A DNA stretch of 64,000 nucleotides from an uncultured Mollicutes bacterium (lineage in GTDB: Bacteria > Bacillota_I > Bacilli_A > ML615J-28 > CAG-313): positions 73,855 through 137,854 of the forward strand of contig URLJ01000001.1 in the NCBI GenBank assembly GCA_900548675.1, read 5' to 3'. This document shows positions 45,082 through 60,874 of this stretch, one piece after another. The notes beneath the pieces are model-generated. The model searched no databases and was not told the origin of the DNA. It worked only from the letters and a program-made list of their open reading frames with translations. Every line of letters begins with the position of its first letter. Position 1 is the stretch's first letter. Position numbers and translations under genes: made by a program.

Positions 45082-45110
45082 TTGTATTTTCGACAGTTTT
45101 CGCATATAAT
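45082..45110 (+). promoter_or_regulatory. sigma-70/SigA-type promoter (TTGTAT-N17-TATAAT) preceded by TGTAAT x6 tandem repeats
   Basis: -35 at 45082-45087 and -10 at 45105-45110, in the divergent region. Confidence 0.4.
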
Positions 45111-45365
45111 AACATCATCAGGAGAAGGAAGGCGAAGGACTGAACCAAAAAGACAAAATATAATTATGTAAACCGTTCAGGTATTATGTAAACTATAAAT
45201 AAAATATGGCGTTTTGTCAAAAGGTCAAAAGGAGCTGGGTTTTGGTCGAAAAAGCTGGACTTCACCAGATGCAAAAAATTTAAAATTTTTTTCAAAAAAA
45301 AGCAGGAATTTTAAATTTTTTATAGAATATTATAATATAAAGATATGAAAGGAAGGAAGAAAAAA

Positions 45366-45860
45366 ATGGACGAAAAACAACTTTTTTTAGGAATAAGTAA
45401 AGAAAAATGGCTTGAATTATTCGAAGGGCTAGGAGGTTGCAACTGCTACGAGTTGTACTTTATATTTAAACATAATCTATATAAAATCGAATTGAAAGAA
45501 CTAGAGAACGATATAGTAAAAGTAGGAAGAGAAAGCAGTTCAAAAGGAGGACACTTAAAACTTAGACTTTATGTAAACAGTGCAAAGAAGCAACAATGGA
45601 TAATCAGCAACAAAGCAAAAAAAATTATGTCAGAAGAGAAAATGATAACATCAGCTAAAGAATTAAATTTAAACAAAGGGCAATTTTGTGAATACCTTTC
45701 AGCCAAAGCTAGAAAACAAGAATACACCCTAGATAATGTAAGATTTGACAAAGCTGGAGACGTAAACTTAAAAAGAAAAAAGATACAAGTAAAATTCGAG
45801 AACGCAAGTCTAACACAATTAAGAACAATAGCAAAGGTTGCTAAGCTAAACTTAGCTTAG
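45366..45860 (+). CDS. hypothetical early protein
   Basis: RBS GAAAGGAAGGAAG before ATG 45366. The upstream ATG at 45345 has no RBS. Confidence 0.4.
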   Translation: MDEKQLFLGISKEKWLELFEGLGGCNCYELYFIFKHNLYKIELKELENDIVKVGRESSSKGGHLKLRLYVNSAKKQQWIISNKAKKIMSEEKMITSAKELNLNKGQFCEYLSAKARKQEYTLDNVRFDKAGDVNLKRKKIQVKFENASLTQLRTIAKVAKLNLA

Positions 45861-45911
45861 TACCTTGCAAATATGATATAAAATAAATAAATAAAAAGGA
45901 GCTGTATTATT

Positions 45912-46094
45912 ATGAAAAAATTATTAGGTATGTTATTAGGAAGTATATTATTAGGAAGTGTTTTAATGTTAATATTAGGAGCTATAAACTGGTTCATTGA
46001 CTGGGCTACTATGGACGAAGGAAGGTTTATCCTATCAATGATAATCATAGGATATGTAGTTGTTAAAATGATAAAAAGAGAGCTAGAACTATAA
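45912..46094 (+). CDS. small hydrophobic membrane protein (60 aa)
   Basis: RBS AAAGGAG. Two predicted TM helices. Confidence 0.4.
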   Translation: MKKLLGMLLGSILLGSVLMLILGAINWFIDWATMDEGRFILSMIIIGYVVVKMIKRELEL

Positions 46095-46102
46095 CTAGCT
46101 CT

Positions 46103-46137
46103 TTATGTAAACCGCTTCTCGCGGCAAGTTTACATAA
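46103..46137. repeat. gene-terminal inverted-repeat element, family member A (TTATGTAAAC-GC core-GTTTACATAA)
   Basis: Arms at 46103-46112 and 46128-46137 flank CCGCTTCTCGCGG. Confidence 0.6.
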
Positions 46138-46225
46138 ATACTTTACTAAATTAATGAATTAATTAGTAGACTTATAAGTTTACATAATAACTTTACAAAT
46201 AAATAAATTATTTTTGTATAAACTA

Positions 46226-46254
46226 TTGACTTCTGGATAAAATAATGATATAAT
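46226..46254 (+). promoter_or_regulatory. consensus early promoter TTGACT-N17-TATAAT
   Basis: -35 at 46226-46231 and -10 at 46249-46254. One of roughly 38 near-identical promoters in 45-61 kb. Confidence 0.55.
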
Positions 46255-46281
46255 ATAAGAGTAGAAAGGAAAGGGATAAAT

Positions 46282-46473
46282 ATGGCAAATAAATTTATTA
46301 ATCATTTTACAGTTGCAGAATTGGAAATAATAAATTGGTACTTAAAACAAGCCCAAGAACAAGAAAGTAAAAGACTAAATGAAATGGGAGAAATAGCAAA
46401 AAAGAGATATATTGACTTAAGGTTTATAATTGTTAAAAACAAAAACTTAATTAAAAAATACAAAAAAGTTTAG
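46282..46473 (+). CDS. hypothetical small protein (63 aa)
   Basis: RBS AAAGGAAAGGG before ATG. Confidence 0.35.
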   Translation: MANKFINHFTVAELEIINWYLKQAQEQESKRLNEMGEIAKKRYIDLRFIIVKNKNLIKKYKKV

Positions 46474-46754
46474 CAAAATGCTAAACTTAATATAAAACAA
46501 TTATAATGGCATTTATTTACAAAGTAATTTTATTTTTCAATTTTATTTTAATTTTAATTTTGATTTTGATTTTATTTTGATTAACCCCAGCCCCTAAAAT
46601 AGAATTGCTTTAACCCCTATTTTGATTATAACCCCAAAATAATTTTAAAAAAATGTATAAAAACACTTGACAAAGGTTATAATATATAGTATAATATATA
46701 TATAATAAATAAGACAGATGATAAAGTCTTTAAAACATAGAAGGAGAGATGTTT

Positions 46755-47108
46755 ATGGAAAAATTAACAATTGCAAAGAAAAATGAAATTTTAAGAGAAA
46801 GAGCATTTGATATGCTAATTAAGGAAGGTTTACTAAATGACAAACTATTTAAGGTTGCAGGTTCAAAATTTATGGTAAATGTTGAATTTGAAGGAGAACA
46901 AGTTCCAGTAAGAATTGATTTTGTAGTTCCAAAAATTGACCCAGAAGATACTTGTCAATTTGCAGAAGATTTTGCAGAACTTTATGAACAAGAACAAGAA
47001 GGAAAAAGAATTGCAAAAGAAGAAAAACAAAAAGCAAAAGAAAAGAAAATTGCAAGAGATAAAGCATTAAGAGAGAAAAAGAAAAAAGAAAAAGAAGAAG
47101 GACAATAG
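46755..47108 (+). CDS. hypothetical protein, paralog family A (lysine-rich C-terminal tail)
   Basis: RBS AAGGAGAG 6 nt before ATG 46755. Paralogous to the 49575-49946 product (shared L-x-AK-E, VRIDxVVPK, AEDxxxL, K-rich tail). Confidence 0.45.
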   Translation: MEKLTIAKKNEILRERAFDMLIKEGLLNDKLFKVAGSKFMVNVEFEGEQVPVRIDFVVPKIDPEDTCQFAEDFAELYEQEQEGKRIAKEEKQKAKEKKIARDKALREKKKKEKEEGQ

Positions 47109-47120
47109 TCCTTCTTTTTT
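47091..47120 (+). terminator. intrinsic terminator
   Basis: GAAGGAC-aata-GTCCTTC followed by T7. Confidence 0.5.
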
Positions 47121-47138
47121 TATTTTATTGTAAAGATA

Positions 47139-47200
47139 TTATGTAAACCTTTATGTAAAGGTATTATGTTAACCGCTTCCGGCGCCCGAAGTTTACATAA
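47139..47200. repeat. gene-terminal inverted-repeat element B (three left-arm copies, GC core CCGGCGCCCG, right arm GTTTACATAA)
   Basis: Left arms TTATGTAAAC at 47139 and 47151 and TTATGTTAAC at 47165. Right arm at 47191-47200. Confidence 0.55.
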
Positions 47201-47313
47201 CAACTTACAAATAATTTAAAAATATTTTAATTTTTTTTGCATATTTTACTTGACATTTGGAAATAATTATAGTATAATATAATTACAAAAGGGAAAGGTA
47301 AAAGGTGGTTAAT

Positions 47314-47790
47314 ATGAAAAAAATATTTTTAGATTTAGATGGAACATTAGCAAAATTTAATGTAAGAAATGCTTTACAAAGATTTGATAAAGAAATTGGC
47401 TTTTTTGCAAAACTTGGAGCATATAAAGGAATTGAAACAATAAACGAATTAGCAAAAAATGGAAATGTATATATAATTTCAGCAAGTCCAAACACACAAG
47501 CAGATTTTGACAAAATAGTTTGGATAGAAAAATATTTAAACAATATACCAAAAGCAAATAGGCTAATTTGTAGAGTTGGAGAAAACAAAGCAGAATATTT
47601 AAAAACAAAAGGAATACAAATTGACAAAAATTGTTATTTGTTAGATGATTACACAAAAAACTTAACAGAATGGGAAACAGTTGGAGGAGTAGGCATTAAA
47701 AGAATTACAAAATGTGCTGATAATTCAACAAAAAAATGGTTAGGTTTAGAATTAAAAGATTTATGTAAACTAAGCGAAGTTTTGGCTTAG
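47314..47790 (+). CDS. HAD-superfamily 5'(3')-deoxyribonucleotidase-like protein (paralog 1)
   Basis: HAD motif I DLDGTL at the N-terminus. Later DD and K motifs. Paralogous to the 60875-61378 product. Confidence 0.5.
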   Translation: MKKIFLDLDGTLAKFNVRNALQRFDKEIGFFAKLGAYKGIETINELAKNGNVYIISASPNTQADFDKIVWIEKYLNNIPKANRLICRVGENKAEYLKTKGIQIDKNCYLLDDYTKNLTEWETVGGVGIKRITKCADNSTKKWLGLELKDLCKLSEVLA

Positions 47791-47825
47791 TTTTTCTTTT
47801 TGACAACCCGCTTCTGGTAAAGTTA

Positions 47826-47865
47826 TTATGTTAACTTGGCGCGCCGTCCAAAAAGGTTTACATAA
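47826..47865. repeat. gene-terminal inverted-repeat element C
   Basis: TTATGTTAAC (47826-47835)...GGCGCGCC...GTTTACATAA (47856-47865). Confidence 0.6.
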
Positions 47866-47958
47866 TATGTTGCAAATAAATTAAAAAATTTTTGCATAAA
47901 CTATTGACAAAAGGGAATAATAGTAGTATAATTAATACAACAAAGGGGGAATATAAAA

Positions 47959-48273
47959 ATGAAATTTATAAATATGATAAGAGAAATTATGCAAATGGAT
48001 ATTGAAAAAGGATTTAAAAGAAAAATGTTATTTTTGGGTTGTTTAGAGGCAATTTTAGGAGCTTATAAACTATTAATAAAATTACCAGTATATTTTTTTG
48101 GTTTACCTTTTAATATTTTACACAAAATTGGTGAATTTGTTGCTGATGGTTGTATGAATATAATGTGGGCTATTGATGAGTTACCAGATGTCAAATTGGC
48201 TAAAAAAGAAGACAAAGATATATTAGTTCAAAAATTAAAAGAAAAATATAATAGAAAAGTATTGACAAAATAA
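47959..48273 (+). CDS. hypothetical protein with hydrophobic segment
   Basis: RBS AAAGGGGGAA. 104 aa. Confidence 0.4.
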   Translation: MKFINMIREIMQMDIEKGFKRKMLFLGCLEAILGAYKLLIKLPVYFFGLPFNILHKIGEFVADGCMNIMWAIDELPDVKLAKKEDKDILVQKLKEKYNRKVLTK

Positions 48274-48322
48274 AATGTATATGTTATAATATAATTAAGT
48301 TAAGAGAAGGGAAGAGATTAAA

Positions 48323-49021
48323 ATGAAAATTGATAAAAGAAAAAAATATTTAATGGTGTTAGATGTTGAAACTGCAAACTCAAATGTAGAAAAAGGTGCA
48401 AAAAACGATGGTTTAGTTTATGATTTAGGACTAACAGTAATTGATAAAAAAGGACAAATTTACGAAAAGAAAAGTTTTGCAATAAAAGAAATTTTTGACT
48501 GGTCTGAGCTTATGTCAACTGCTTATTATAAAAATAAATTACCAAAATATTATGAGAAATTAAAAAACAAAACAATGGAAAAAGTAAGTATTTGGACTGC
48601 ACGAAAAATAGTTAAAAATTTAATAGAAAAATATAATATAACAGAAGTTTATGCTTTTAATGCTTTATTTGATTATACAACATTAAATAACACAGTTAGA
48701 TATTTAAGTGGTTCAGGTTGTAGATGGTTTTTCCCTTATGGTACAAAAATATGTGATATTTGGCACATTGCTTGTCAAGTGTTAGGAACACAAAAAACTT
48801 TCCAATGGGAAAATGTTAGAAATGCAAAAGGAAATCTAATAACAAACGCAGAACGAATGTTTGGTTATATAGACCAAAATGAAGATTTTGAAGAAGAACA
48901 CACAGGACTTGCAGATACACTAATTGAGGGGCAAATACTTGTTCGTTGTTTTAATAATCATAAATCAATTGATAAAAAAATCAATAGAAGTTGTTGGAGA
49001 ATACCACAAAAAGTTGCTTAG
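48323..49021 (+). CDS. DEDDh 3'-5' exonuclease (DnaQ-like), paralog 1
   Basis: Exo I LDVETAN, Exo II YAFNALFD, Exo III HTGLADT. Paralogous to the 57683-58447 product. Confidence 0.55.
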   Translation: MKIDKRKKYLMVLDVETANSNVEKGAKNDGLVYDLGLTVIDKKGQIYEKKSFAIKEIFDWSELMSTAYYKNKLPKYYEKLKNKTMEKVSIWTARKIVKNLIEKYNITEVYAFNALFDYTTLNNTVRYLSGSGCRWFFPYGTKICDIWHIACQVLGTQKTFQWENVRNAKGNLITNAERMFGYIDQNEDFEEEHTGLADTLIEGQILVRCFNNHKSIDKKINRSCWRIPQKVA

Positions 49022-49049
49022 GCAACTTTTTCTTTTTGACAAAATAATA

Positions 49050-49116
49050 TTATGTTAACTTATCCCGCCGGCGCGAAAACGAACAAATGTTTGGTGTAAC
49101 CTTCAGGTTTACATAA
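49050..49116. repeat. gene-terminal inverted-repeat element D, enclosing a Cheo-box-like site
   Basis: TTATGTTAAC (49050-49059)...CCGCCGGCG...CGAACAAATGTTTG...GTTTACATAA (49107-49116). Confidence 0.6.
49080..49093. promoter_or_regulatory. LexA Cheo-box-like site CGAACAAATGTTTG
   Basis: GAAC-N4-GTTT matches the Gram-positive SOS box CGAACRNRYGTTCG with one mismatch. Confidence 0.4.
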
Positions 49117-49224
49117 TAACTTACAAATAATTGTCAAAAAGAATTTTAAAAAATTTTGTATATTCTCTTGACTTTTGCATATAATAGTAGTATAATAAAT
49201 ATATAAAGAAAAGGGGATGATAAT

Positions 49225-49362
49225 ATGAATGAAATAATTAATAGGTTAGTTGAAAATGCAATACAAAAATATGGATTTGAACACAAAAAGACAATAGCAA
49301 TTGTAAAAAATGCTGAAAACTTAAAAGAAAAATATGAGTTAGGAATTTTAAAAATTTGTTAA
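49225..49362 (+). CDS. small hypothetical protein (45 aa)
   Basis: RBS AAAGGGGATGA before ATG 49225, behind its own TTGACT-N17-TATAAT promoter at 49167-49196. Not in the ORF track because it is under 60 aa. Confidence 0.3.
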   Translation: MNEIINRLVENAIQKYGFEHKKTIAIVKNAENLKEKYELGILKIC

Positions 49363-49574
49363 AAAACTATTGACAAGATAAACAAAGTATGTTATAATAT
49401 AAGTACAGTAAGAAAAGAAGTCAAGACAAAATAAAAATAAAAAGTTTTAAAAAAGTCTTGACAAACACAATAAAGTATGTTATAATAAATACATAAAGAG
49501 AAGTAAAAAATCTTGAAAATTCTCTGAAAAGATTTATAAAAAAATTAAAATTTGAAAGGATTAGGTGATGTTTT

Positions 49575-49946
49575 ATGGCAAAATTAACAGTAGCAAAAAT
49601 CAATGAAATGGCAAGAGGAGTTGCAATGGAGGAAATAGCAAAAAATGGCTTAGTAAACTTCCTACAAATAGAAGGAACTAAATTTGCAAAAGATTTTGAA
49701 TTTGAAACAGAAGAAGGCAAAATGACAAAAACTGTAAGAATTGATGTAGTTGTTCCAAAATTAGAAGAAGGGGAAAATGCTGAATTTCTAGCAGAAGATT
49801 ACCAATTAAGACTAAAAGAAAAAAAAGAAAATGCTAAAGCAAAAGCAGAAGCAAAGGCTAAAAAAATTGCAAGAGATGAAAAAAGAAGAGCAGAAAAAAA
49901 GGCAAATGAAACAAACCCAGTAATTAAGAGAACTATAAAAGAATAG
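49575..49946 (+). CDS. hypothetical protein, paralog family A (second copy)
   Basis: Shares MxKLTxAK, VRIDVVVPK and AEDY motifs and a K-rich tail with the 46755-47108 product. Confidence 0.45.
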   Translation: MAKLTVAKINEMARGVAMEEIAKNGLVNFLQIEGTKFAKDFEFETEEGKMTKTVRIDVVVPKLEEGENAEFLAEDYQLRLKEKKENAKAKAEAKAKKIARDEKRRAEKKANETNPVIKRTIKE

Positions 49947-49949
49947 TCA

Positions 49950-49978
49950 AAAGGGCAAAATGCCCTTTTGTTTTTTGT
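49950..49978 (+). terminator. intrinsic terminator
   Basis: AAAGGGCAAAATGCCCTTT followed by TGTTTTTTGTTT. Confidence 0.55.
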
Positions 49979-49990
49979 TTGGTAAAGATA

Positions 49991-50035
49991 TTATGTAAAC
50001 CAAACATTTGTTCAGGCCGGCACAAGTTTACATAA
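49991..50035. repeat. gene-terminal inverted-repeat element E, enclosing a Cheo-box-like site
   Basis: TTATGTAAAC (49991-50000)...CAAACATTTGTTCAG...GGCCGGC...GTTTACATAA (50026-50035). Confidence 0.6.
50001..50015. promoter_or_regulatory. LexA Cheo-box-like site (reverse complement CTGAACAAATGTTTG)
   Basis: GAAC-N4-GTTT. Confidence 0.4.
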
Positions 50036-50127
50036 AATTCCAAAAATTTTTTAATAAAATTAGTATAAACTATTGACATTTGCACATAATAGTAGTATAA
50101 TATAAATATAGAAGGGGAGTTGATAAT

Positions 50128-50562
50128 ATGAAAAATAAAAAACTTATGGAGGCTAAAAAGTTAATTAAATCAATAGATAATGATATTCAAATCATTGTAG
50201 AAAGACACAAATATACAAGAGGGTTAACCTGTGAACCAACAGAAAAAAGAATTTATTTAGGTTTTAGGGCTACAAAAATTGAAAACCAAACATTCATAGA
50301 TTTAGTTAATGAATTAGAACCTAATTTCTTCCAGAAGTACAAAGTTAGTTTATGGCTATTAAGTGTATTACACGAAATAGGACACATTCAAACCCACGAT
50401 GAAGAACTTGAAGACGATTACAATTTTTGTGTTGATTTTCTTAATGAGTTGAAATTAAACAATGAAATTACAGAAAAAGAACAAAACGAATATTATGTAA
50501 GGTTAGACTTAGAACAAATGGCAACACAATGGGCAATAGATTATGTAAAGAAGGCATTTTAG
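50128..50562 (+). CDS. putative zinc metallopeptidase (HExxH; ImmA/IrrE- or SprT-like)
   Basis: HEIGH motif inside LLSVLHEIGHIQTHDEE, with a downstream Glu. 144 aa. Confidence 0.4.
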   Translation: MKNKKLMEAKKLIKSIDNDIQIIVERHKYTRGLTCEPTEKRIYLGFRATKIENQTFIDLVNELEPNFFQKYKVSLWLLSVLHEIGHIQTHDEELEDDYNFCVDFLNELKLNNEITEKEQNEYYVRLDLEQMATQWAIDYVKKAF

Positions 50563-50591
50563 CCTTCTTTTTTTATACCATAATTACCATT

Positions 50592-50627
50592 TTATGTAAA
50601 CTTGGCTTGCCGGCGCGGTTTACATAA
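50592..50627. repeat. gene-terminal inverted-repeat element F
   Basis: TTATGTAAAC (50592-50601)...GCCGGCGCG...GTTTACATAA (50618-50627). A degenerate Cheo-like CAAACATTTGTTTG follows at 50649-50662. Confidence 0.55.
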
Positions 50628-50689
50628 CAACTTTACATAATGCCGCACCAAACATTTGTTTGTCAAATTTCAACTCTTTATTGCCGGCA

Positions 50690-50835
50690 CGCTCGCAGCC
50701 TACTGTCAAATTTCTACCACCCTCGCCGCCTCCTAAGGAGCTGCAAAGGAGCTGGGAGCTGCGTTGTCAAATTTTCGCCAGGAGCTGCGTTCAACCTCCC
50801 AGGTTTACATAATATGTTTACAGGAGCTGCAAAGC
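50690..50835 (+). repeat. GC-rich GGAGCTGC repeat island with TGTCAAATTT x3
   Basis: (A/C)AGGAGCTGC occurs 5 times and TGTCAAATTT(C) 3 times. The track ORF 50640-50852 is judged a spurious product of these repeats. Confidence 0.5.
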
Positions 50836-50906
50836 CAACGTTTGACTTTTAGTACAAATTCATGTATAATTATATTATAGAAAAAATAAAGAAAGGGTTG
50901 ATTTAA

Positions 50907-51212
50907 ATGGGTAATAGAGATAGAATAATTAGATGGGACGACGAAAACAATGCACACAGATATTTTGTTAATGGCAGATTAGTAGGATGTGGATATGACT
51001 TTTTAGAAGTATTCGAGAAAGCTGCACCATTCTTACACATTGGCAGAGAAATAGTAACTCGTCAAGTTTGTCTTTGTGATATTGACAGCGACTTATCAGA
51101 TACAAAAACAGGTATGATAGTAGATTTCTTAAACGAAGCTAAAAGATTAACAGAATTTCAAGAAAAAGCATTATACGAATTTGACTTCACATCTTTGTTA
51201 GAATTGATATAA
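50907..51212 (+). CDS. hypothetical protein (101 aa)
   Basis: RBS AAAGGGTTGA. Promoter at 50845-50875. Confidence 0.4.
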   Translation: MGNRDRIIRWDDENNAHRYFVNGRLVGCGYDFLEVFEKAAPFLHIGREIVTRQVCLCDIDSDLSDTKTGMIVDFLNEAKRLTEFQEKALYEFDFTSLLELI

Positions 51213-51219
51213 CGCACAT

Positions 51220-51248
51220 TTGACTTTTAGTTAAAAGTGTTATATAAT
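51220..51248 (+). promoter_or_regulatory. promoter of the tRNA/ncRNA operon (TTGACT-N17-TATAAT)
   Basis: -35 at 51220-51225 and -10 at 51243-51248. Confidence 0.55.
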
Positions 51249-51280
51249 ATTATTATAGAAAATAAATAATATTTTCTTAG

Positions 51281-51612
51281 CGATGAAAACCACCGTATCA
51301 GTGGCTAGTCGCACACAAATCCTTAGGTCAGTAATTAAGCGCAGTCATGATGGGCTTAGTGAAGGATAAGGTTGACTGTTAGTGAACGAGGACTATCAAG
51401 TTATCAGTAGGAAGAAACTGTTCCCAGGTTGTTGGAATCGGGGTGAGAGAACCAACCAGACCGAAACTGAAAGAGGCTCCGCACCTATGCGTTAAATGGC
51501 GATAGCAGAGATTAGTTATCTGCGAGTAAGAGACATATTATTTAATTAGTGCACACTCTCTTGCGTGCGGGGTTTGTATCATTTAGAACTATAGTCGCCC
51601 CGCAATTTATAT
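51281..51612 (+). ncRNA. structured RNA with group-I-intron-like core motifs (R-like GAACGAGGACTATCA, S-like AGAACTATAGTCGCC); no exons recognised
   Basis: P7-like pairing between GACTA (51392-51396) and TAGTC (51592-51596). Many nested hairpins. Lies between the promoter and tRNA-Leu(TAG). No ORF. Confidence 0.3.
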
Positions 51613-51689
51613 GCATTAGTATGCAAACTGGCAAAGCAGCTGGTCTTAGAAACCAGTGTATGAAAGTTCGACTCTTTCCTAATGCACCA
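51613..51689 (+). tRNA. tRNA with anticodon TAG (Leu by codon table) but class-I architecture (5-nt variable loop)
   Basis: Acceptor GCATTAG/CTAATGC, A73, CCA encoded. Anticodon stem CTGGT/ACCAG around loop CTTAGAA. T-arm GAAAG-TTCGACT-CTTTC. Confidence 0.6.
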
Positions 51690-51757
51690 AATTATGGTTT
51701 GCGAGGCACCCATCGGTGAGAGCTGCACATCTCACATGAGAAAACCTCGGTGCATAT

Positions 51758-51844
51758 GCACCTTTGGCGGAATAGGCAGACGCGTGGGACTTAAAATCCC
51801 ATGGACGAGAGTCCGTCCCAGTTCGATTCTGGGAAGGTGCACCA
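51758..51844 (+). tRNA. tRNA-Leu(TAA), class II with long variable arm
   Basis: Acceptor GCACCTT/AAGGTGC. Anticodon stem TGGGA/TCCCA around loop CTTAAAA. Variable arm TGGACGAGAGTCCGT. T-arm CCCAG-TTCGATT-CTGGG. CCA encoded. Confidence 0.7.
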
Positions 51845-52002
51845 GCAGGGCGAACCCGTAACGTCCCTTTGCAAATAGAATATCGGGTGGTGTGGATAAG
51901 CGAAGCTACAATGCTCAATAATAGTAGTTCTTGTTATTTATTTTTTCGTATACCATTTGGGTATACAGAACGCGCGGCGTCGCAAGCGACAGCCGTTTAT
52001 AT

Positions 52003-52089
52003 GGGTCTTTGGGTGAGCTGGCTAAAACCGCCAGACTGTAAATCTGGTCTCTTCGGAGTACCCTGGTTCGAATCCAGGAGGGCCCACCA
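52003..52089 (+). tRNA. tRNA-Tyr(GTA) with long variable arm
   Basis: Anticodon stem CCAGA/TCTGG around loop CTGTAAA. Variable stem CTC-TTCG-GAG. T-arm CCTGG-TTCGAAT-CCAGG. Acceptor GGGTCTT/AGGGCCC. CCA encoded. Confidence 0.65.
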
Positions 52090-52095
52090 TTATAT

Positions 52096-52171
52096 TCGCG
52101 GGTGGTGTAATTGGTAACACGACGGACTTTGACTCCGTAGAGTGTTGGTTCGAGACCAGCCCCGCGAGCCA
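52096..52171 (+). tRNA. tRNA-Gln(TTG)
   Basis: U1-A72 acceptor TCGCGGG/CCCGCGA. D-stem GTGT/ACAC. Anticodon stem ACGGA/TCCGT around loop CTTTGAC. T-arm GTTGG-TTCGAGA-CCAGC. G73 then CCA. Confidence 0.65.
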
Positions 52172-52254
52172 CAGCTACGCAAGTAGCGAAACACACCCCT
52201 TTCTTTTGTAGGTCAGCTGTCTCGTGTAGACCTGACAGCTGGCTAATTTCAAAT

Positions 52255-52283
52255 TTGACTTTTAGTGTGAATTTTGATATAAT
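52255..52283 (+). promoter_or_regulatory. internal promoter TTGACT-N17-TATAAT upstream of tRNA-Val
   Basis: -35 at 52255-52260 and -10 at 52278-52283. Confidence 0.5.
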
Positions 52284-52306
52284 ATTATTATAGTAAAAGT
52301 AAATAT

Positions 52307-52382
52307 AGTCCGTTAGCTCAGCTGGTAGAGCATCGCCCTTACAAGGCGGAGGTCGTTGGTTCGAACCCAACACGGACTACCA
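52307..52382 (+). tRNA. tRNA-Val(TAC)
   Basis: Acceptor AGTCCGT/ACGGACT. D-arm GCTC-AGCTGGTA-GAGC. Anticodon loop CTTACAA. T-arm GTTGG-TTCGAAC-CCAAC. CCA encoded. Confidence 0.7.
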
Positions 52383-52550
52383 TTCGAGGATAACTAACTG
52401 GTCTCACCTCTTTAAAAATGAGAACTCTGCTGCGGAGCGCGTACCATCGCAGGGACAAATAAATTAGGCGGAGCAATGCCCTAAATGCTCTGAACAAATA
52501 TGGGCACTTATATAGCGGGGTGGAGCAGTTGGCAGCTCGCCAGGCTCATA

Positions 52551-53111
52551 GAAAATTGTGGCTCCATGTAGAAATACATAGATGAACTGTGGATGAATTC
52601 AGAGGAGGCTAAGTCTTTTGGAAAAGAAAATTATAGGTTATGATGATGTATATACAATAGATACTAATGGTATTGTATATAGAAATGGTAAACCAATGTC
52701 CCCAAGGGATAATGGTATAGGTTATCAGCAAATAGGATTGCGTTTAAATCGCAGACGATACAATGTTTATATTCACAGATTGGTTTGGGAAACTTTTAAA
52801 GGAGATATACCAAATGGATATGAGATTAACCATATAGACCATAATAAACATAATAATAACTTAGATAATTTAGAGTTAGTATCTCACTCTACCAATTTAA
52901 AAAAATCAGTAGAAAGATATGGATACTATGGTTCTATGAATAGACCAAAAGATATGCGAACTTTGAGCCAAGCCGAAGATACATCTTCGGAAGGTGCAGA
53001 GACTACTGGAGAGGTATAGTCCTCTTAATAACCAGTTTAAGTATCCACTACCTAAGTCGTAAGATATGGTAAAGACATAGTCCACTCTATAATGAAAATT
53101 ATAGGTAAGTA
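52551..53111 (+). mobile_element. group-I-like intron carrying an HNH homing endonuclease ORF
   Basis: R-like TTCAGAGGAGGCTAAGTC (52598-52615) and S-like AAAGACATAGTCC (53071-53083) could pair to form P7 (GGCTA/TAGTC). The ORF lies between them, and its RBS GAGGAGG (52602-52608) is embedded in the R element. Confidence 0.45.
52618..53019 (+). CDS. intron-encoded HNH homing endonuclease (TTG start)
   Basis: Layout typical of phage HNH homing endonucleases (HNH_3/NUMOD-like): conserved YIHRLVW, then EINHIDHNKHNNNLDNLELVSHSTN. RBS 9 nt upstream of the TTG start. Confidence 0.55.
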   Translation: MEKKIIGYDDVYTIDTNGIVYRNGKPMSPRDNGIGYQQIGLRLNRRRYNVYIHRLVWETFKGDIPNGYEINHIDHNKHNNNLDNLELVSHSTNLKKSVERYGYYGSMNRPKDMRTLSQAEDTSSEGAETTGEV

Positions 53112-53177
53112 AACCCGAAGGTCGTAGGTTCAAATCCTACTCCCGCAACCAATAGAAGATCATAGAGGTTGGTAAAA

Positions 53178-53459
53178 ATGGCAATTATCTATTATATAGA
53201 CAACAAAGCAAACTGGAAAGGATATGTTGGTTGTTCTAAAACTCCACTATCTCATAGATGGGGGAAACATAAATATTTATTAAGGCATAACCTACATTCT
53301 AACAAGGAACTGCAAGATGACTGGAATAAATATGGAGAGCACAGCTTTAGTGCTTTTGTTATAGAAACCTGCCCAGATAGTAAGATGCTAGAGAGAGAAA
53401 AGTATCATATAAACAGATTACAAACAAATGTCAGAGGGGTTGGGTACAACCAGAAGTAA
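53178..53459 (+). CDS. GIY-YIG endonuclease, catalytic-domain-only (93 aa)
   Basis: IYYIDNKANWKGYVGCS...R...KH...E...N is the classic GIY-YIG motif set. Starts 27 nt after the tRNA-Met 3' exon. No DNA-binding extension. Confidence 0.5.
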   Translation: MAIIYYIDNKANWKGYVGCSKTPLSHRWGKHKYLLRHNLHSNKELQDDWNKYGEHSFSAFVIETCPDSKMLEREKYHINRLQTNVRGVGYNQK

Positions 53460-53748
53460 CTGATTTTTAAGAGGGATAGTTTGGTGGGCACCTCACCATT
53501 AAGAGCTGGTGCTGAATTGGACAACTATTATTTGCTACCAATTATTTGAAAAAAGTTTTAAAAAAGACTTGATTCAAGGTAGCAACATAGTTTATAATAT
53601 AAATGTAAAATGAAAAAGGAAAAATAAAAAAGACTTCTAATCCTTTACCATTTAGCGTAATAGCTCTGGTTTATTAGAAGCAAAAAATATTTATTTTAGA
53701 AAGGGTATCCAATTGGCTGCTATAAGGTTGGATATTAGGGTGAAAATT

Positions 53749-54000
53749 ATGGCTAAAGAAAGATTTAATGTAATGGGAAAAGAACTTACTGCAAATGAAA
53801 AAGCAGTATATGAATTCGTAAGGGACAACGGAGTAGTTGATTACAAGATGGTTGCTGAAAAACTAAATATCAGTCCAAAGAGTGCATCAAGCACACTAGC
53901 AAGACTAGAAGCAACTCATTCACTATTAAAGAAAAATGCTCCAAAAGTTGCTACAACTTATGAAGTAGAAGCTGAAGCTGACGAAGTTGAAGCTGAATAG
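53749..54000 (+). CDS. small winged-helix-like protein, family W paralog 1
   Basis: MAKERFNVMGKELTANEKAVYEFV...SPKSASSTLARLEATHSLLKK aligns with four other copies. Acidic C-terminus. Confidence 0.4.
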   Translation: MAKERFNVMGKELTANEKAVYEFVRDNGVVDYKMVAEKLNISPKSASSTLARLEATHSLLKKNAPKVATTYEVEAEADEVEAE

Positions 54001-54002
54001 TA

Positions 54003-54040
54003 ATAGGAGTATCGGCTTAGCCGAGCTCCTATAATATATT
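54003..54040 (+). terminator. hairpin terminator (weak T-tract)
   Basis: ATAGGAG-TATCGGCTTAGCCGA-GCTCCTAT. Confidence 0.35.
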
Positions 54041-54366
54041 AAGGTTTTTATTCTTCACAATATAAAAGGGGTTGCTTGTGGTTGCCCCAACCAAAAACAT
54101 AAGTGGTGGTAGGTTTGCTCGTTAGGGGCTGCGAGGGTAAATAAAGAACAGCAGAACTGGTTGCATAATACGAGTGGCAAGGCAAGAGCCTTGTCTTTTT
54201 TTTATTTTTTAATTTTAGACTTGACAAACGGTACTTGCATATGATAAAAAAACTTTTTTATTTTTTTTTGCAAAAAAGACTTGACGAGATCCCTTAAAAT
54301 GAATTATAATTATTATAATGGGAGTGATATATATAAAAAAAAAGAAAAATTTACGGAGATGATATT

Positions 54367-54858
54367 ATGTGGAAATCGTATGATGATATATATGAGATAA
54401 GCACTGGTGGTAAGATAAGAAATAAGAAAAGTCCTGATAAGATATTAAAGACATATGTTAATAATTGTGGATATGAGAAATTCAAGGGCCACAATGTACA
54501 TCAGTATGTACATAGAATGGTAGCGGAGACATTCATACCTAATCCATCTGGTAAAGAACAAGTGAACCATAAAAATGGGGATAAGCTGGATAACAGGGCA
54601 GAAAATCTTGAATGGGTAACTCGTAGTGAGAACGTATCTCACGCTTATAAGTGCCTAGGAAGAAAACGTAGTTACTGTGGTTCAAAAGGACATAATGCTA
54701 AAAAGGTATATCAGTATTCATTAGAAGGTCAGCTCCTTACTACCTATAATTCGGTGGGTGCAGCTGCAGAAGCTGTCGGAGGTGCAAGTCCTAACATCAG
54801 CAGATGTTGCAATGGGCATATTAAAACATACAAAAACTTTGTATGGAAAAATGAATAA
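54367..54858 (+). CDS. HNH homing endonuclease (free-standing)
   Basis: YVHRMVAETF and NHKNGDKLDNRAENLEWVTRSEN follow the same pattern as the intron-encoded HNH. Own promoter TTGACG...TATAAT at about 54287-54320. Confidence 0.5.
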   Translation: MWKSYDDIYEISTGGKIRNKKSPDKILKTYVNNCGYEKFKGHNVHQYVHRMVAETFIPNPSGKEQVNHKNGDKLDNRAENLEWVTRSENVSHAYKCLGRKRSYCGSKGHNAKKVYQYSLEGQLLTTYNSVGAAAEAVGGASPNISRCCNGHIKTYKNFVWKNE

Positions 54859-54913
54859 AAATACTTGACTTGTCCTTCCTTAAAGATTTATGATATAATG
54901 GGAGAGTATTATT

Positions 54914-54927
54914 AAAAAAAAAAAAAA
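54914..54927 (+). repeat. A14 homopolymer at the 5' end of an ORF-less transcript
   Basis: 14 consecutive A immediately after TATAATGGGAGAG. Confidence 0.7.
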
Positions 54928-55345
54928 TAGATCCCAGCTCCCTTAGCCTGATCCAGCTCCAAATCCCAGCTCCCACCTAAGGGGTTAGCTATGAGGGCGC
55001 AGCTCCAGATTGCTACCAGGGGATAGGTGGCAATGAATTATTTCCTGGGAAATATTTGCTAGCAAAAAATGGGTAGACTCCCCCCTCCCCTTCTTCTGGC
55101 AGTTAGATCTCATTACACGGCTCGGGTCTAACTATCGCCCACATAATTAATTTTTCTTTTCCTCCTTTCTTTATAATATAATTATACATCTTTCAGCTCC
55201 CAATAGTCAAGTATTTTTTGAAAAATTTTAGCAGCTCCCATTGCCCCCCACCTTCCAGCTCCCATAGCGCAGCTCCGGTAGGTAAAGCGCAGCTCCCACC
55301 CAGCTCCCAATAGGTGGCAATGCCAGCTCCCTGCTACCAAATTAT
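54928..55345 (+). repeat. CCAGCTCC(C) / ATAGGTGGCAA repeat island (the minus strand reads GGGAGCTGG)
   Basis: At least 10 copies of CAGCTCC and 3 copies of ATAGGTGGCAA in two blocks (54928-55010 and 55193-55345). Promoter-driven with no credible ORF; the track ORF 55182-55433 (-) is judged a spurious product of these repeats. Confidence 0.5.
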
Positions 55346-55492
55346 AGGTGGCAACACCTGATCTGATCCACCTTGACCGGATCTCTTGCCCTTGGGATAA
55401 TTTTTGCAATAAATTTTTAAAAAAGACTTGCATTTTACTCCATAATTTGATATAATTATATTGTAAATAAAAAAGAAAGGAAGAGTGGTAAA

Positions 55493-55672
55493 ATGAAACA
55501 AAAACTAATTAAAAAATTGCACGATCTAATGCTACAAATAATTACTTGTAATGATGCTGAACTTGACAAGATAGGAATTGAACTTGCCGAAATAGAAAAA
55601 CAATTAATTAATTGGCAAGAAAAAAATCTCAAAAAAAATAAAAAAATACTTGACTTTAAGGACAAGATGTAG
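55493..55672 (+). CDS. small hypothetical protein (59 aa)
   Basis: RBS AAAGGAAGAGTGG before ATG 55493. Its 3' end overlaps the next promoter. Confidence 0.35.
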   Translation: MKQKLIKKLHDLMLQIITCNDAELDKIGIELAEIEKQLINWQEKNLKKNKKILDFKDKM

Positions 55673-55740
55673 TATAATTAATATATCAAATGAAGAAATA
55701 AAAGAAAAGTAAAAAAAGTTAAAAAAATTAAAAAAAACAC

Positions 55741-55769
55741 TTGACTTTTAAATCTGAATTTGATATAAT
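55741..55769 (+). promoter_or_regulatory. consensus promoter TTGACT-N17-TATAAT
   Basis: -35 at 55741-55746 and -10 at 55764-55769. Confidence 0.55.
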
Positions 55770-55833
55770 ATATATGTAAATAAAAAAAGAAAGGGCATTA
55801 ACAAATTAGTCGGTTAATGTAATGGTGATTAAA

Positions 55834-56079
55834 ATGGCTAAAACAAAAGAATTATTTAATGTTAGAGGAGTAAACTTAACTGCTCACGAAAAAAATGTTT
55901 ACGACAAAGTAAAGGAATTAGGCACTGTTGACTACAACCAAGTAGCAACTGCTTGTAATGTATCTACTAAGTCTGCTATTGCAACATTAGCAAGATTAGA
56001 AAAAACTCACGGTTTATTAAGAAAAAATGAACCAGTAAAAGTAACTACTTATGAAGTTGCTGATGTAGAGGGCGAATAG
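55834..56079 (+). CDS. small winged-helix-like protein, family W paralog 2
   Basis: MAKTKELFNVRGVNLTAHEKNVYDKV...STKSAIATLARLEKTHGLLRKNEPVKVTTYEV. Confidence 0.45.
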   Translation: MAKTKELFNVRGVNLTAHEKNVYDKVKELGTVDYNQVATACNVSTKSAIATLARLEKTHGLLRKNEPVKVTTYEVADVEGE

Positions 56080-56092
56080 TCCTCTTTTTTTA
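56063..56092 (+). terminator. intrinsic terminator
   Basis: AGAGG-gcgaatagt-CCTCT followed by T7. Confidence 0.5.
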
Positions 56093-56104
56093 TTTACTGT
56101 AAAG

Positions 56105-56118
56105 CGAACAAATGTTTG
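56105..56118. promoter_or_regulatory. LexA Cheo-box-like site CGAACAAATGTTTG
   Basis: GAAC-N4-GTTT, 8 nt upstream of a TTGACA. Confidence 0.4.
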
Positions 56119-56207
56119 TCAAATACTTGACAAAAAATTTTTTTATTTTTTTTATTAAAAATACTTGACTTTGTGGGGGAAAGTGTGATATAATTAAAGG
56201 GGAAGTA

Positions 56208-56227
56208 TTTTTTTTTTTTTTTTTTTT
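56208..56227 (+). repeat. T20 homopolymer
   Basis: 20 consecutive T directly downstream of promoter 56170-56198, at the 5' end of an ORF-less GC-rich transcript. Confidence 0.7.
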
Positions 56228-56271
56228 AGTAGCTTCGCAGCTGCCACAGCAGCAGCTCAGCTCCCAGCTCC

Positions 56272-56291
56272 GACACACCCGGGTGCGTTGT
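56272..56291 (+). repeat. conserved 21-nt motif copy 1 (GACACACCCGGGTGCGTTGT)
   Basis: Member of the 7-copy family with consensus TGATACGCCCGGNTGAGTTGTA. Confidence 0.5.
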
Positions 56292-56352
56292 TGCCCCCCG
56301 TTAGGGGGTAAGGGGCTAGGTGGTTGCCCCTGGGTTGGGTTAACCCAAGATC

Positions 56353-56374
56353 TGATACGCCCGGTTGAGTTGTA
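56353..56374 (+). repeat. conserved 21-nt motif copy 2 (TGATACGCCCGGTTGAGTTGTA), flanked by AGATCT and preceded by the GGGTTAACCC palindrome
   Basis: Direct sequence match. Confidence 0.55.
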
Positions 56375-56403
56375 AGATCTTTTTGATCCGGGAGAGGATC
56401 TCA

Positions 56404-56425
56404 CGATACGCCCGGATGAGTTGTC
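56404..56425 (+). repeat. conserved 21-nt motif copy 3 (CGATACGCCCGGATGAGTTGTC)
   Basis: Direct sequence match. Confidence 0.55.
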
Positions 56426-56535
56426 TTTCATTATTATAATATAAAAAAACTTGAAAAACTTTTATAAAAATGCTTGACTTCTTTTTCTTTATTTGGTATA
56501 ATTAAGATGTAATAAAGAAAGGAAAGGTGTTAAAA

Positions 56536-56727
56536 ATGACTGAAACACAAGAATTGATTTTAAATAAGTTAGGGGAATTATGTAGAATTTATCCACAACA
56601 AAGATTAGGACAAATAATCTATAATTATATTTTAAGGTATTGTCCTAATAACGATTGTTTCTTTATAGAAGATACTAAACTTTTAGAATTATTAGAAACA
56701 ATTACAAAAGAAATTGAAGAAAAGTAA
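56536..56727 (+). CDS. hypothetical small protein (63 aa)
   Basis: RBS AGGAAAGGTG before ATG 56536. Promoter at 56473-56503. Confidence 0.4.
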   Translation: MTETQELILNKLGELCRIYPQQRLGQIIYNYILRYCPNNDCFFIEDTKLLELLETITKEIEEK

Positions 56728-56797
56728 AAAAAATACTTGACTTTAATTTCTACCTATGATATAATTAAGATGTAATAAAGAAAGGAAAGTGATAAAA

Positions 56798-56920
56798 ATG
56801 GCAATGACACCTGCAAAAAGACATCAAATAAGAGCAAAGCAAGAGGCAATGCAAAAAGCAAGAAAAGAGGAAAGACTTGGACTTGCTAAAAAAACAGCAA
56901 AGAAAAAGGGAAGAAAATAA
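56798..56920 (+). CDS. small basic protein (40 aa, Lys/Arg-rich)
   Basis: RBS AAAGGAAAGTG before ATG. Own promoter. Followed by the hairpin GGGAAGAAA-ataa-TTTCTTCCC. Confidence 0.35.
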   Translation: MAMTPAKRHQIRAKQEAMQKARKEERLGLAKKTAKKKGRK

Positions 56921-56964
56921 TTTCTTCCCCCCTCAAAAAAAATTAAAAAAAGTTAAAAAAGGTA

Positions 56965-56993
56965 TTGACATTTGACCTAATAAATGTTATAAT
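56965..56993 (+). promoter_or_regulatory. consensus promoter TTGACA-N17-TATAAT
   Basis: -35 at 56965-56970 and -10 at 56988-56993. Confidence 0.55.
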
Positions 56994-57045
56994 TAATATG
57001 TAAATGAGAGATAGCCACTCTCAAAAAGAAAGGAAAGTGATAAAA

Positions 57046-57291
57046 ATGGCAAAAACTAAAGAAACTTTTAATGTAAGAGGTGTAGAACTAACTGCACACG
57101 AAAAAAATGTTTATGAAAAGGTTGTAGAACTTGGAAAAGTTGACTATAATCAAATTGCTACAAGTTGTAATGTAAGTCCTAAAAGTGCGATAGCAACACT
57201 TGCTAGACTTGAAAAAACACACGGACTTCTAAAGAAAAATGAACCTGTAAAGGTTACAACTTACGAAATCGCCGAAGATATAGAGGACTAG
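57046..57291 (+). CDS. small winged-helix-like protein, family W paralog 3
   Basis: MAKTKETFNVRGVELTAHEKNVYEKV...SPKSAIATLARLEKTHGLLKKNEPVKVTTYEI. Confidence 0.45.
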   Translation: MAKTKETFNVRGVELTAHEKNVYEKVVELGKVDYNQIATSCNVSPKSAIATLARLEKTHGLLKKNEPVKVTTYEIAEDIED

Positions 57292-57308
57292 AAACCTCTA
57301 TATTTTTT
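57270..57308 (+). terminator. intrinsic terminator
   Basis: TATAGAGG-actagaaa-CCTCTATA followed by T7. Confidence 0.5.
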
Positions 57309-57320
57309 TATGTTCTAATA

Positions 57321-57334
57321 CGAACAAATGTTCG
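57321..57334. promoter_or_regulatory. LexA Cheo-box, perfect match CGAACAAATGTTCG
   Basis: Exact fit to the Gram-positive SOS box consensus CGAAC-N4-GTTCG. Confidence 0.5.
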
Positions 57335-57465
57335 CTTTTGGCCCCCCCAAAAAAAATTAAAAAAATTACAAAAAACTATTGACTTTCACTTGCATTTTTG
57401 CTATAATTATGTTAGAGGTGGAGGAGAGCCCCTTATAAAAAAGATCTTCCTTTAGATCATCTGAT

Positions 57466-57487
57466 GATACGCCCGGATCAGTTGTAT
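57466..57487 (+). repeat. conserved 21-nt motif copy 4 (TGATACGCCCGGATCAGTTGTA)
   Basis: Sits in an ORF-less unit behind promoter 57383-57412, preceded by the AGATCT...AGATC inverted repeat. Confidence 0.55.
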
Positions 57488-57682
57488 GGGTTGGGATGCT
57501 CCCAAAAAAATTAAAAAAAATATAAAAAAAGTATTGACTTTTGATTTGGTCTATGATATACTTAATATGTAATCAAGGAAAGACACCAAAGAAAAAAAAT
57601 AAAAAAAATTATAAAAAAGTGTTGACACTGATTAGAAAGTATGTTATAATAAATATGTAATTAAGAAAGGAAAGTGAATTAA

Positions 57683-58447: not shown

Positions 58448-58585
58448 AAAAACTTTCTTTTTTTTGTAAAAAAGTATTGACTTTATACCAAAACAATGCT
58501 ATAATTATAATGGGGGTGGATGATGATGATATATATAACAACGCCGCCTGGCGTGTCATAAACGTCCCCCTTGGGTTAACCCAAA

Positions 58586-58607
58586 TGATACACCTGGATG
58601 AGTTGTA
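58586..58607 (+). repeat. conserved 21-nt motif copy 5 (TGATACACCTGGATGAGTTGTA), preceded by the TTGGGTTAACCCAA palindrome
   Basis: Sits in an ORF-less unit behind promoter 58477-58505, whose transcript starts ATAATGGGGGTGG. Confidence 0.55.
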
Positions 58608-60841: not shown

Positions 60842-60874
60842 TCTTTACAAAAAAAATGAAAGGAATTGATTAAA

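Follow-up and report, generated by a model that had tools for sequence, protein, structure and literature searches.

Introduction

In textbooks, bacterial tRNA-Leu is treated as almost always belonging to class II, the tRNAs with a long variable arm. A biochemical study of 2019 likewise treats it in this way, and the same study showed that the leucyl-tRNA synthetase (LeuRS) of Streptomyces coelicolor (ScoLeuRS) charges a type I, short-variable-loop tRNALeu(CAA), for which the minimum effective variable loop is 5 nucleotides (nt) including N48. U8:A14 matters in that tRNA, and the enzyme relies on a particular leucine-specific domain and not on A73 (Fan et al. 2019, PMC6614811). In addition, a short-variable-loop tRNALeu(TAG) has been remarked on in mycobacterial tRNA gene clusters (Behra et al. 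2019, PMC6582537). A literature search pairing type I tRNALeu with bacteriophage returned no paper. Here, we describe an arm-less tRNA-Leu(UAG) gene in a phage-derived stretch of 64,000 nt (contig URLJ01000001.1, positions 73,855 to 137,854; hereafter the window). This gene extends the known arm-less tRNA-Leu family to a low-GC gut phage, a setting new for it, and its helices are AT-rich. The gene encodes neither a class II tRNA nor a suppressor nor a recoding device, and the comparisons given below suggest that it very probably encodes a functional, leucine-charged type I tRNA-Leu.

The rules by which leucine identity is set provide the background to this assignment. In Escherichia coli, they comprise A73, U8:A14, A15:U48, G18G19 and A20a, plus G18:U55, G19:C56 and U54:A58 (Giegé and Eriani, PMC9976931). 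E. coli LeuRS requires neither the anticodon nor the long arm, variants without both arms still being active, and C2-G71 is an antideterminant against seryl-tRNA synthetase (SerRS) (PMC9976931). The identity of mitochondrial tRNALeu also rests on A73 and A14 (PMC9976931), and SerRS depends on the long variable arm (PMC9976931 for the identity rules).

Structure of the tRNA-Leu(UAG) Gene

ARAGORN called a 77-nt tRNA-Leu(tag) on the + strand (51613-51689) and placed its anticodon at raw position 35, and Rfam RF00005 matched 51613-51686 over its full length and on the + strand only (60.2 bits compared with a gathering score of 29, E = 7e-12). The parts of the gene are as follows, A3 being the 18-sequence family alignment described in the next section.

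51613..51689, + strand: type I (short-variable-loop) tRNA-Leu(UAG), 77 nt with encoded CCA (ARAGORN, Rfam, near-identical copies, family covariation)
51620..51639, + strand: D-arm UAUGCAAACUGGCAAAGCAG, from U8 to G26, with the family signature of a 3-bp stem, A13.A22, A14, A15, G18G19 and A20a (recurrence of the 20-mer, near-invariance in A3)
51647..51649 (loop 51645-51651), + strand: anticodon UAG in the 7-nt loop CUUAGAA, with A37, not G37 (sequence, ARAGORN, Rfam)
51657..51661, + strand: variable loop UGUAU, 5 nt, whose last base is U48, the partner of A15 (sequence, Rfam alignment; U48 invariant in A3)
51686..51689, + strand: discriminator A73, the A at 51686, and encoded CCA (sequence; A73 in 18/18 family members)

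ARAGORN, Rfam and the sequence itself agree with a preliminary description of this DNA, made from the letters alone, which had placed here a tRNA with anticodon UAG, a 5-nt variable loop and A73, and which had pointed out that the long variable arm of bacterial Leu tRNAs is absent. Where a class II tRNA has a long variable arm of more than 10 nt with a stem, this tRNA has the 5-nt loop UGUAU. The same description had called the tRNA perfectly folding, which holds for the acceptor stem (GCAUUAG/CUAAUGC, Watson-Crick in 7/7 pairs, followed by U8 A9) and not for the molecule as a whole, as the D-stem has only three base pairs (U10-A25, G11-C24 and C12-G23) plus an A13.A22 mismatch and the folding energy of the single sequence is unremarkable (z = -1.9). 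The D-loop reads A14 A15 C16 U17 G18 G19 C20 A20a A21, with G26 next after the stem, the anticodon stem is CUGGU/ACCAG, and the T-arm consists of the T-stem GAAAG/CUUUC and the T-loop UUCGACU. Selected structure is claimed here because of the covariation among homologues, not because of single-sequence folding energy.

The preliminary description was also right that CUA, the amber anticodon, is not encoded: the anticodon is UAG on the + strand. A reading as an amber suppressor or a minus-strand gene was rejected, since neither ARAGORN nor Rfam calls any tRNA on the minus strand.

The Arm-Less Family and Its Covariation

Scanning viral contigs with an anticodon stem-loop pattern yielded 97 tRNA(UAG) genes. 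Five of these combine a length of 77 nt with a variable loop of 5 nt: one in locus L080, one in L095 and three more whose D-arm is typical of Leu. The tRNA in L080 is identical to the window tRNA, and the copies in L106, L095 and L109 are identical or near-identical. Among GenBank phages, blastn gave ungapped matches over positions 7-66 to annotated tRNA-Leu genes in 81 Mycobacterium and 40 Vibrio phage records. They include a 75-nt tRNA-Leu(tag) in Mycobacterium phage EniyanLRS, which adjoins a 74-nt tRNA-Leu(caa), a 75-nt tRNA-Leu(tag) in Mycobacterium phage Whirlwind and a 77-nt tRNA-Leu in Vibrio phage 6E35.1a. Phage relatives annotated as tRNA-Leu, which the preliminary description had named, together with a Leu assignment by isotype models, as observations that would tell against its reading, are therefore on record.

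The window shares the 20-nt D-arm UAUGCAAACUGGCAAAGCAG, without any difference, with L095, L106, L109, L108 (a Pirellulaceae-binned contig carrying 14 tRNAs) and EniyanLRS. The 20-mer is also present in L107, with no tRNA there; by our own estimate, about one match in the 596 Gb would be expected by chance. A metagenome scan with the D-arm, allowing one degenerate position, detected 13 more tRNAs, all of them short-loop and mostly in arrays of 20-29 tRNAs.

Two family alignments were built, one of 8 sequences (A2) and one of 18 (A3), and in both the window tRNA shares the features that define the family: the D-arm UAUGCAAAYUGGCAAAGCA, a UGUNU variable loop, the UUCGACU T-loop, A73 and a Leu anticodon. 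In A3, the D-arm, U48 and most of UGUNU, the T-loop and A73 are invariant or nearly so, whereas the four helices vary freely. Despite this variation, 99.4% of its 360 stem cells are in standard pairs and 17 of the 20 pairs show compensatory changes; 0/500 shuffles reach any of the observed measures, and sliding the partners by 1-3 columns leaves 38-54% paired. The corresponding values for A2 are 100% of stem cells paired and 15/20 pairs compensatory. Covariation of this kind indicates a functional RNA in which selection maintains both the cloverleaf and a specific tertiary core.

The anticodons borne on this D-arm are Leu anticodons in 17 of 18 sequences (UAG, UAA, CAA, CAG and GAG) and cover both Leu codon boxes, and all UAG members examined in A3 carry A37. 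Arm-less tRNA-Leu genes in the viral loci belong to at least three sequence families, the second of which has the D-arm UAGCCCAA..GGCAGAGG and only the anticodons UAA, CAA and GAG. Members of the gene family circulate in phage genomes and tRNA arrays.

Three of the arrays (L114, L115 and L119, with 27, 11 and 29 tRNAs in the stretch examined) all contain arm-less Leu tRNAs with the anticodons UAA, GAG and CAG, to which L114 and L115 add CAA; the variable loops across this set are 3-5 nt long.

Probable Leucine Identity

The window tRNA carries the whole E. coli LeuRS set, with A73, U8:A14, A15:U48, G18G19, A20a and U54:A58, and also C2-G71. Across the family in A3, positions A73, U8, A14, A15, U48, G18, G19, A20a, U54 and A58 are invariant. 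By itself, A15:U48 is not Leu-specific in phage tRNAs, as 6-45% of tRNAs of other isotypes have it (the indexing of N73 was noisy as well), and this noisy test was replaced by a stricter one of D-arm geometry, which demands U8, a purine13.A22 mismatch, A14A15, G18G19 at raw positions 18-19, A20a and a 9-nt loop. Among 987 unique phage tRNAs, this geometry was found in 56/142 Leu tRNAs (48/118 of class II and 8/24 of type I) compared with 3/845 non-Leu tRNAs, and the window tRNA has it.

Two phage tRNA-His(GUG) genes, in L029 and L067, combine a short variable loop with a D-arm (GAUGGAAUUGGUAGACA) that resembles those of Leu tRNAs, which would fit an origin from tRNA-Leu bodies.

One body found with anticodons from both Leu boxes, and almost no others, is the pattern expected under a leucine identity that is blind to the anticodon. 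The preliminary description had suggested either a Leu isoacceptor of unusual architecture or a tRNA with switched identity. The first of these is borne out by the identity set, the D-arm geometry, the five Leu anticodons and the finding (see below) that CTA means Leu. The second finds no support: the tRNA has neither G3:U70 nor a long arm with G73, it does not fit the synthetases that read the anticodon, and CTA codons show no non-Leu pattern. This elimination follows established identity rules (in part from PMC9976931). The synthetases that could take a class I tRNA with A73 (those for Val, Ile, Met, Lys, Phe, Pro, Thr and Arg) rely on anticodon bases that U34-A35-G36 does not provide, alanyl-tRNA synthetase needs G3:U70 where the window tRNA has A3-U70, and SerRS needs a long arm and G73.

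Behavior of CTA Codons

Codons were counted in 67 open reading frames (ORFs; the first ORF set, which includes one spurious ORF over the tRNAs). The Leu codons comprise TTA 1015, CTT 194, TTG 142, CTA 120, CTG 30 and CTC 16, so that CTA makes up 120 of 1517 Leu codons and the CUN codons total 360. When 69 CTA codons of the window were compared with relatives of ~73% identity, 74% were found opposite Leu codons (TTA 26, CTA 12, CTT 8, TTG 3, CTG 1), compared with 76% of TTA, 76% of TTG and 80% of CTT codons, and the non-Leu partners of CTA were Ile, Val and Met. Relative to a contig of ~94% identity, 40 of 77 CTA codons had changed, 28 of the 40 to TTA, CTT or TTG. Because CTA exchanges with TTA, CTT and TTG as other Leu codons do, the alignments indicate that CUA means leucine in this phage lineage. 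A search for distant relatives of a 1529-aa protein, intended for a larger codon test, returned only a near-identical contig. Neither the alignment of CTA with Leu, which resembles that of other Leu codons, nor the 7-nt anticodon loop is what a decoder of a reassigned codon would show.

The distribution of CTA is uneven. In the small-gene block of the + strand (44700-61700), where the tRNA array is located, CTA reaches 13.3 per 1000 codons and 16% of Leu codons, compared with 4.3 per 1000 and 5.4% in the structural block on the minus strand (2000-44700), in which a capsid-like gene (36060-37070) has zero CTA codons and one CTN codon. This enrichment fits a supply role for the small-gene block, as a correlation only and with some of the small + strand ORFs uncertain.

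Loss of the Variable Arm in Phage tRNA-Leu

The frequency of short loops (variable loop of 6 nt or less) was determined among the unique tRNAs of 99 viral loci (L001-L099). As these loci had been chosen by a single Leu(UAG) stem-loop, the other anticodons provide the less biased sample.

Leu(UAG): short loop in 5/76
Leu(UAA): short loop in 8/40
Leu(CAA): short loop in 8/19
Leu(GAG): short loop in 2/3
Leu(CAG): short loop in 1/2
Ser: short loop in 1/56
Tyr: short loop in 0/31

A short loop is present in 24 of 142 unique Leu tRNAs, and in 19/66 if the pattern-selected UAG set is left aside. The architecture that the preliminary description had considered unusual is hence less so, given these 19 of 66 non-UAG tRNA-Leu. 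The simplest reading is that arm deletions are tolerated only in tRNA-Leu: arm-less tRNA-Leu would be frequent in phages, and arm-less tRNA-Ser and tRNA-Tyr not, because LeuRS tolerates the loss while SerRS, and presumably tyrosyl-tRNA synthetase, which presumably depends on the long arm too, need it.

Weighing the Leucine Assignment

Several observations weigh against the view that the window tRNA is charged with leucine and decodes CUA. A crude body-only, position-weight (naive-Bayes) classifier, trained on phage tRNAs from which the anticodon arm and the variable region had been left out, had a leave-one-out accuracy of 64% and recovered 109 of 114 class II Leu tRNAs, but it assigned the window tRNA to no isotype, the best being 'Cys' with a score of 0.9 nat, and Leu lying outside the top six. 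A nearest-neighbor comparison of the acceptor, D and T parts with 972 phage tRNAs likewise gave no clear isotype. The primary sequence of the body is not simply that of a class II tRNA-Leu minus its arm, an origin disfavored because the classifier gave no Leu call. Moreover, position 37 of the anticodon loop is A, where the E. coli CUN-reading tRNALeu, as given by the leuW sequence, has G (m1G37), and one short-loop tRNA with the family D-arm (L123:722-798) carries a Pro anticodon, UGG, as the lone non-Leu exception. CUA could also be decoded by host tRNAs, and the codon test excludes a mis-charging tRNA only indirectly. According to Fan et al., no prokaryotic LeuRS other than ScoLeuRS is known to accept both types of tRNALeu, and E. 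coli LeuRS failed in vitro to charge the S. coelicolor type I tRNALeu (PMC6614811). Because of this failure, the competence of Clostridia LeuRS for type I tRNALeu enters our reading as an assumption, and the leucine charging and expression of the window tRNA, as of any family member, are predicted from sequence.

Five or six other arm-less Leu tRNAs (L006, L015, L086, L066 and L008) were clearly Leu-like by the same classifier. As some arm-less Leu tRNAs classify as Leu and the window tRNA does not, arm-less tRNA-Leu genes are of at least two kinds, namely recent arm deletions from class II tRNAs and older, self-contained families such as this one.

Three other explanations have to be considered. 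First, the tRNA might be poorly charged or uncharged and act outside decoding, either as a decoy for a host tRNA nuclease or toxin or as a decaying, hitch-hiking relic. Such a role would accord with the inability of E. coli LeuRS to charge one bacterial type I tRNALeu, with the minor status of CUA (120/1517 Leu codons, none in the capsid-like gene) and with an array in flux, which contains mobile endonuclease genes and an intron-split tRNA-Met. However, a relic would not keep 99.4% stem pairing, 17/20 compensated pairs and an invariant A73 and core over 18 diverged copies. The anticodon loop is intact, the anticodons stay within the Leu set, CCA is encoded, and the threefold higher density of CTA in the + strand block with the array fits a decoding role. 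We consider an existence outside decoding unlikely.

Second, arm loss itself may be adaptive, in that an arm-less tRNA-Leu would escape toxins or nucleases that dock on the class II arm and would still be charged with leucine. A precedent for such docking is the Mycobacterium tuberculosis toxin MenT3, which anchors on the long variable arm of tRNASer, arm length and orientation deciding which tRNAs are targeted (PMC11541572). The full arm-less Leu set in L114 (UAA, GAG, CAG and CAA) and the conservation of the family core across contigs binned to very different bacteria also agree with this idea. However, no Leu-specific, arm-dependent defense was found here, and we know of none. In the window, a class II tRNA-Leu(UAA) is retained beside the arm-less one, and the restriction of arm loss to Leu is equally explained by the tolerance of LeuRS. 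We regard adaptive loss as quite improbable. In a broader and also doubtful version, arm-less tRNA-Leu would be a phage-borne, horizontally spreading lineage whose frozen core is chargeable across phyla and whose arm loss was selected as it removes a handle for toxins or nucleases; if this were true, many hosts would contradict the view that, among bacteria, only the LeuRS of Streptomyces can use type I tRNALeu.

In mitochondria and yeasts, sense codons are reassigned through class I tRNAs that bear Leu anticodons. The third and weakest explanation, a tRNA of switched identity that a non-leucine synthetase charges, so that infection would bring mistranslation or recoding of CUA, as known from the yeast mitochondrial tRNAThr(UAG) or the yeast tRNAAla(CAG), could draw on the class I architecture with a Leu-box anticodon and on the failure of the body-only classifier to group the window tRNA with class II Leu, but it is very hard to sustain given that window CTA codons face Leu codons as often as TTA, TTG and CTT do, that no other synthetase matches, that the anticodon loop has 7 nt, not 8, and that the same body occurs with UAA, CAA, CAG and GAG, which only an anticodon-blind Leu identity explains.

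tRNA Array and Phage Context

Every tRNA gene that ARAGORN detected in the window, five in total, is on the + strand. The four that accompany the tRNA-Leu(UAG), and the promoter-like site upstream, are listed below.

51220..51248, + strand: promoter-like TTGACT-17-TATAAT (11/12 matches), upstream of the array, 365 nt before the tRNA-Leu(UAG); putative, by consensus scan only
51758..51844, + strand: class II tRNA-Leu(UAA) of 87 nt, 68 nt downstream of the tRNA-Leu(UAG) and like it in D-loop geometry (AAUAGGCAG) (ARAGORN, Rfam)
52003-52089, + strand: tRNA-Tyr(GUA) (ARAGORN, Rfam)
52096-52171, + strand: tRNA-Gln(UUG) (ARAGORN, Rfam)
52307-52382, + strand: tRNA-Val(UAC) (ARAGORN, Rfam)

The class II tRNA-Leu(TAA) downstream had already been noted in the preliminary description, with a spacing of 70 nt. 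The order Leu(UAG)-Leu(UAA)-Tyr-Gln-Val-Met-Asn-Thr is common to L080, L095 and L106, the last being a short contig binned with a Clostridia metagenome-assembled genome (MAG) from goat rectum. A partial array in the same order, without Tyr and cut off by the contig end, is found in L109, which was binned with a Clostridium sp. MAG. Among GenBank phages, megablast with the 2-kb region gave no match, and blastn with the rest of the array gave scattered single-tRNA matches and no homologous array.

The window has a G+C content of ~30%, and its long minus-strand block encodes a terminase large subunit, tail proteins, an amidase-type endolysin and a capsid-like protein whose relatives are found in Phage Phass-1 (human gut), in Enterococcus phages of ~140 kb and in SPbeta-like and Clostridioides phages. 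The IMG/VR contig 3300045988_164539 is ~94% identical to the window in nucleotide sequence and the 118-kb contig 3300031555_004349 ~73%. These two contigs carry loci L080 and L095. The phage host is likely to be among gut Clostridia, as suggested by the binning of array-bearing contigs with Clostridia MAGs, which, with the Gram-positive type of the relatives, is all that this proposal rests on.

The promoter-like TTGACT-17-TATAAT occurs in three + strand copies (50842-50870, 51220-51248 and 52255-52283), each within a repeat of ~55 nt, and these sites are probably early or middle promoters of this phage, judging from the consensus. Between the promoter-like site and the tRNA lies a GC-richer leader of 358 nt, which matched no Rfam family, contained no convincing ORF and did not fold significantly (z = -1.2).

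Several other features of the region may be mentioned. A tRNA-Met(CAU) gene at 52514-53151 is split. Its 5′ half (52514-52550) is identical to the uninterrupted L106 gene up to ...CUCAUA, and the insertion of ~561 nt contains an HNH_3 endonuclease ORF (52618-53019; 62.9 bits in Pfam) and, at 52853-53104, a group I intron match that at 40.8 bits falls short of the Rfam gathering score of 50. The 3′ half (53113-53151) has diverged: the T-stem is compensated and the anticodon stem would carry two mismatches (CCAGG vs CCCGA). Either intron homing followed by co-conversion of the exon or damage to the gene could account for this. A GIY-YIG endonuclease ORF (53169-53459) and an HNH plus NUMOD endonuclease ORF (54367-54858) follow the array, and the tRNA-Asn and tRNA-Thr genes that come after tRNA-Met in L080, L095 and L106 are absent from the window. 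On the minus strand, 43364-44644 encodes a 426-aa protein that matches the phage sigma-factor family phrog_5767 (E = 1e-23) and whose C-terminal part has weak matches to endonuclease VII and Lar-like families.

Proposed Mechanism

We propose that the array, including the tRNA-Leu(UAG), would be transcribed from the sigma-70-like promoters, and that host enzymes would process the transcript to a 77-nt tRNA with its genome-encoded CCA. Host LeuRS would then leucylate the tRNA through A73 and the tertiary core, leaving the anticodon unread. With U34, the charged tRNA would be expected to read CUA and CUG, and wobble might extend its reading to the whole CUN box. With the class II tRNA-Leu(UAA) reading UUA and UUG, the two tRNAs together would cover the Leu codons of the phage.

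Implications

The annotation can be regarded as settled, namely tRNA-Leu(UAG) with the standard meaning of CUA and no sign of recoding. The gene itself is ordinary, and the wider point is the breadth of arm-less phage tRNA-Leu: in the phage contigs examined, approximately 15-30% of tRNA-Leu genes are arm-less, whereas tRNA-Ser and tRNA-Tyr almost never are, and one arm-less family with an identical core is found in contigs associated with Clostridia, Actinobacteria and other bacteria. This raises the question of which bacterial LeuRS enzymes accept type I tRNALeu and whether loss of the arm benefits the phage, for which cultured mycobacteriophages and Vibrio phages are possible experimental systems.

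Comparison with Known Systems

The genes of Mycobacterium phages (the Wildcat-like EniyanLRS; the Lumosvirus Whirlwind and its relatives) and of mycobacterial clusters belong to the same family as the window tRNA. They share the UGUNU loop, the UUCGACU T-loop, A73, the anticodon loop CUUAGAA, a length of 75-77 nt, the location in arrays and the annotation as tRNA-Leu, and the D-arm 20-mer is the same as that of EniyanLRS. Unlike them, the window tRNA has AT-rich helices, all four differing by compensatory changes, its host is probably among gut Clostridia, not Actinobacteria, and its gene encodes CCA, which the mycobacteriophage genes do not.

The closest characterized analogue, and the only experimentally charged precedent, is the type I tRNALeu of S. 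coelicolor. The 5-nt loop including N48, U8:A14, C74 and the coexistence with a type II tRNA are found in both, whereas the S. coelicolor tRNA is chromosomal, with the anticodon CAA, the loop ACAGC and C48, and the window tRNA is phage-borne, with UAG, UGUAU and U48. As A15:U48 is an E. coli LeuRS requirement, the difference from C48 may matter for charging.

With the class II tRNA-Leu of E. coli and Aquifex, the window tRNA shares A73, U8:A14, A15:U48, G18G19, A20a and C2-G71, as well as the 3-bp D-stem with purine13.A22 and the 9-nt D-loop, a geometry also seen in the tRNA-Leu(UAA) of the window. It differs from them by the missing long arm, by A37 and by a body whose primary sequence, apart from the identity positions, does not resemble Leu in a simple profile. 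Finally, animal mitochondrial tRNALeu and yeast mitochondrial tRNAThr(UAG) are likewise class I tRNAs with a Leu-box anticodon. These systems are organellar and served by dedicated synthetases, and in yeast the anticodon loop of tRNAThr(UAG) is enlarged and its codon takes on another meaning, whereas in the window tRNA the loop has 7 nt and CUA stays Leu.

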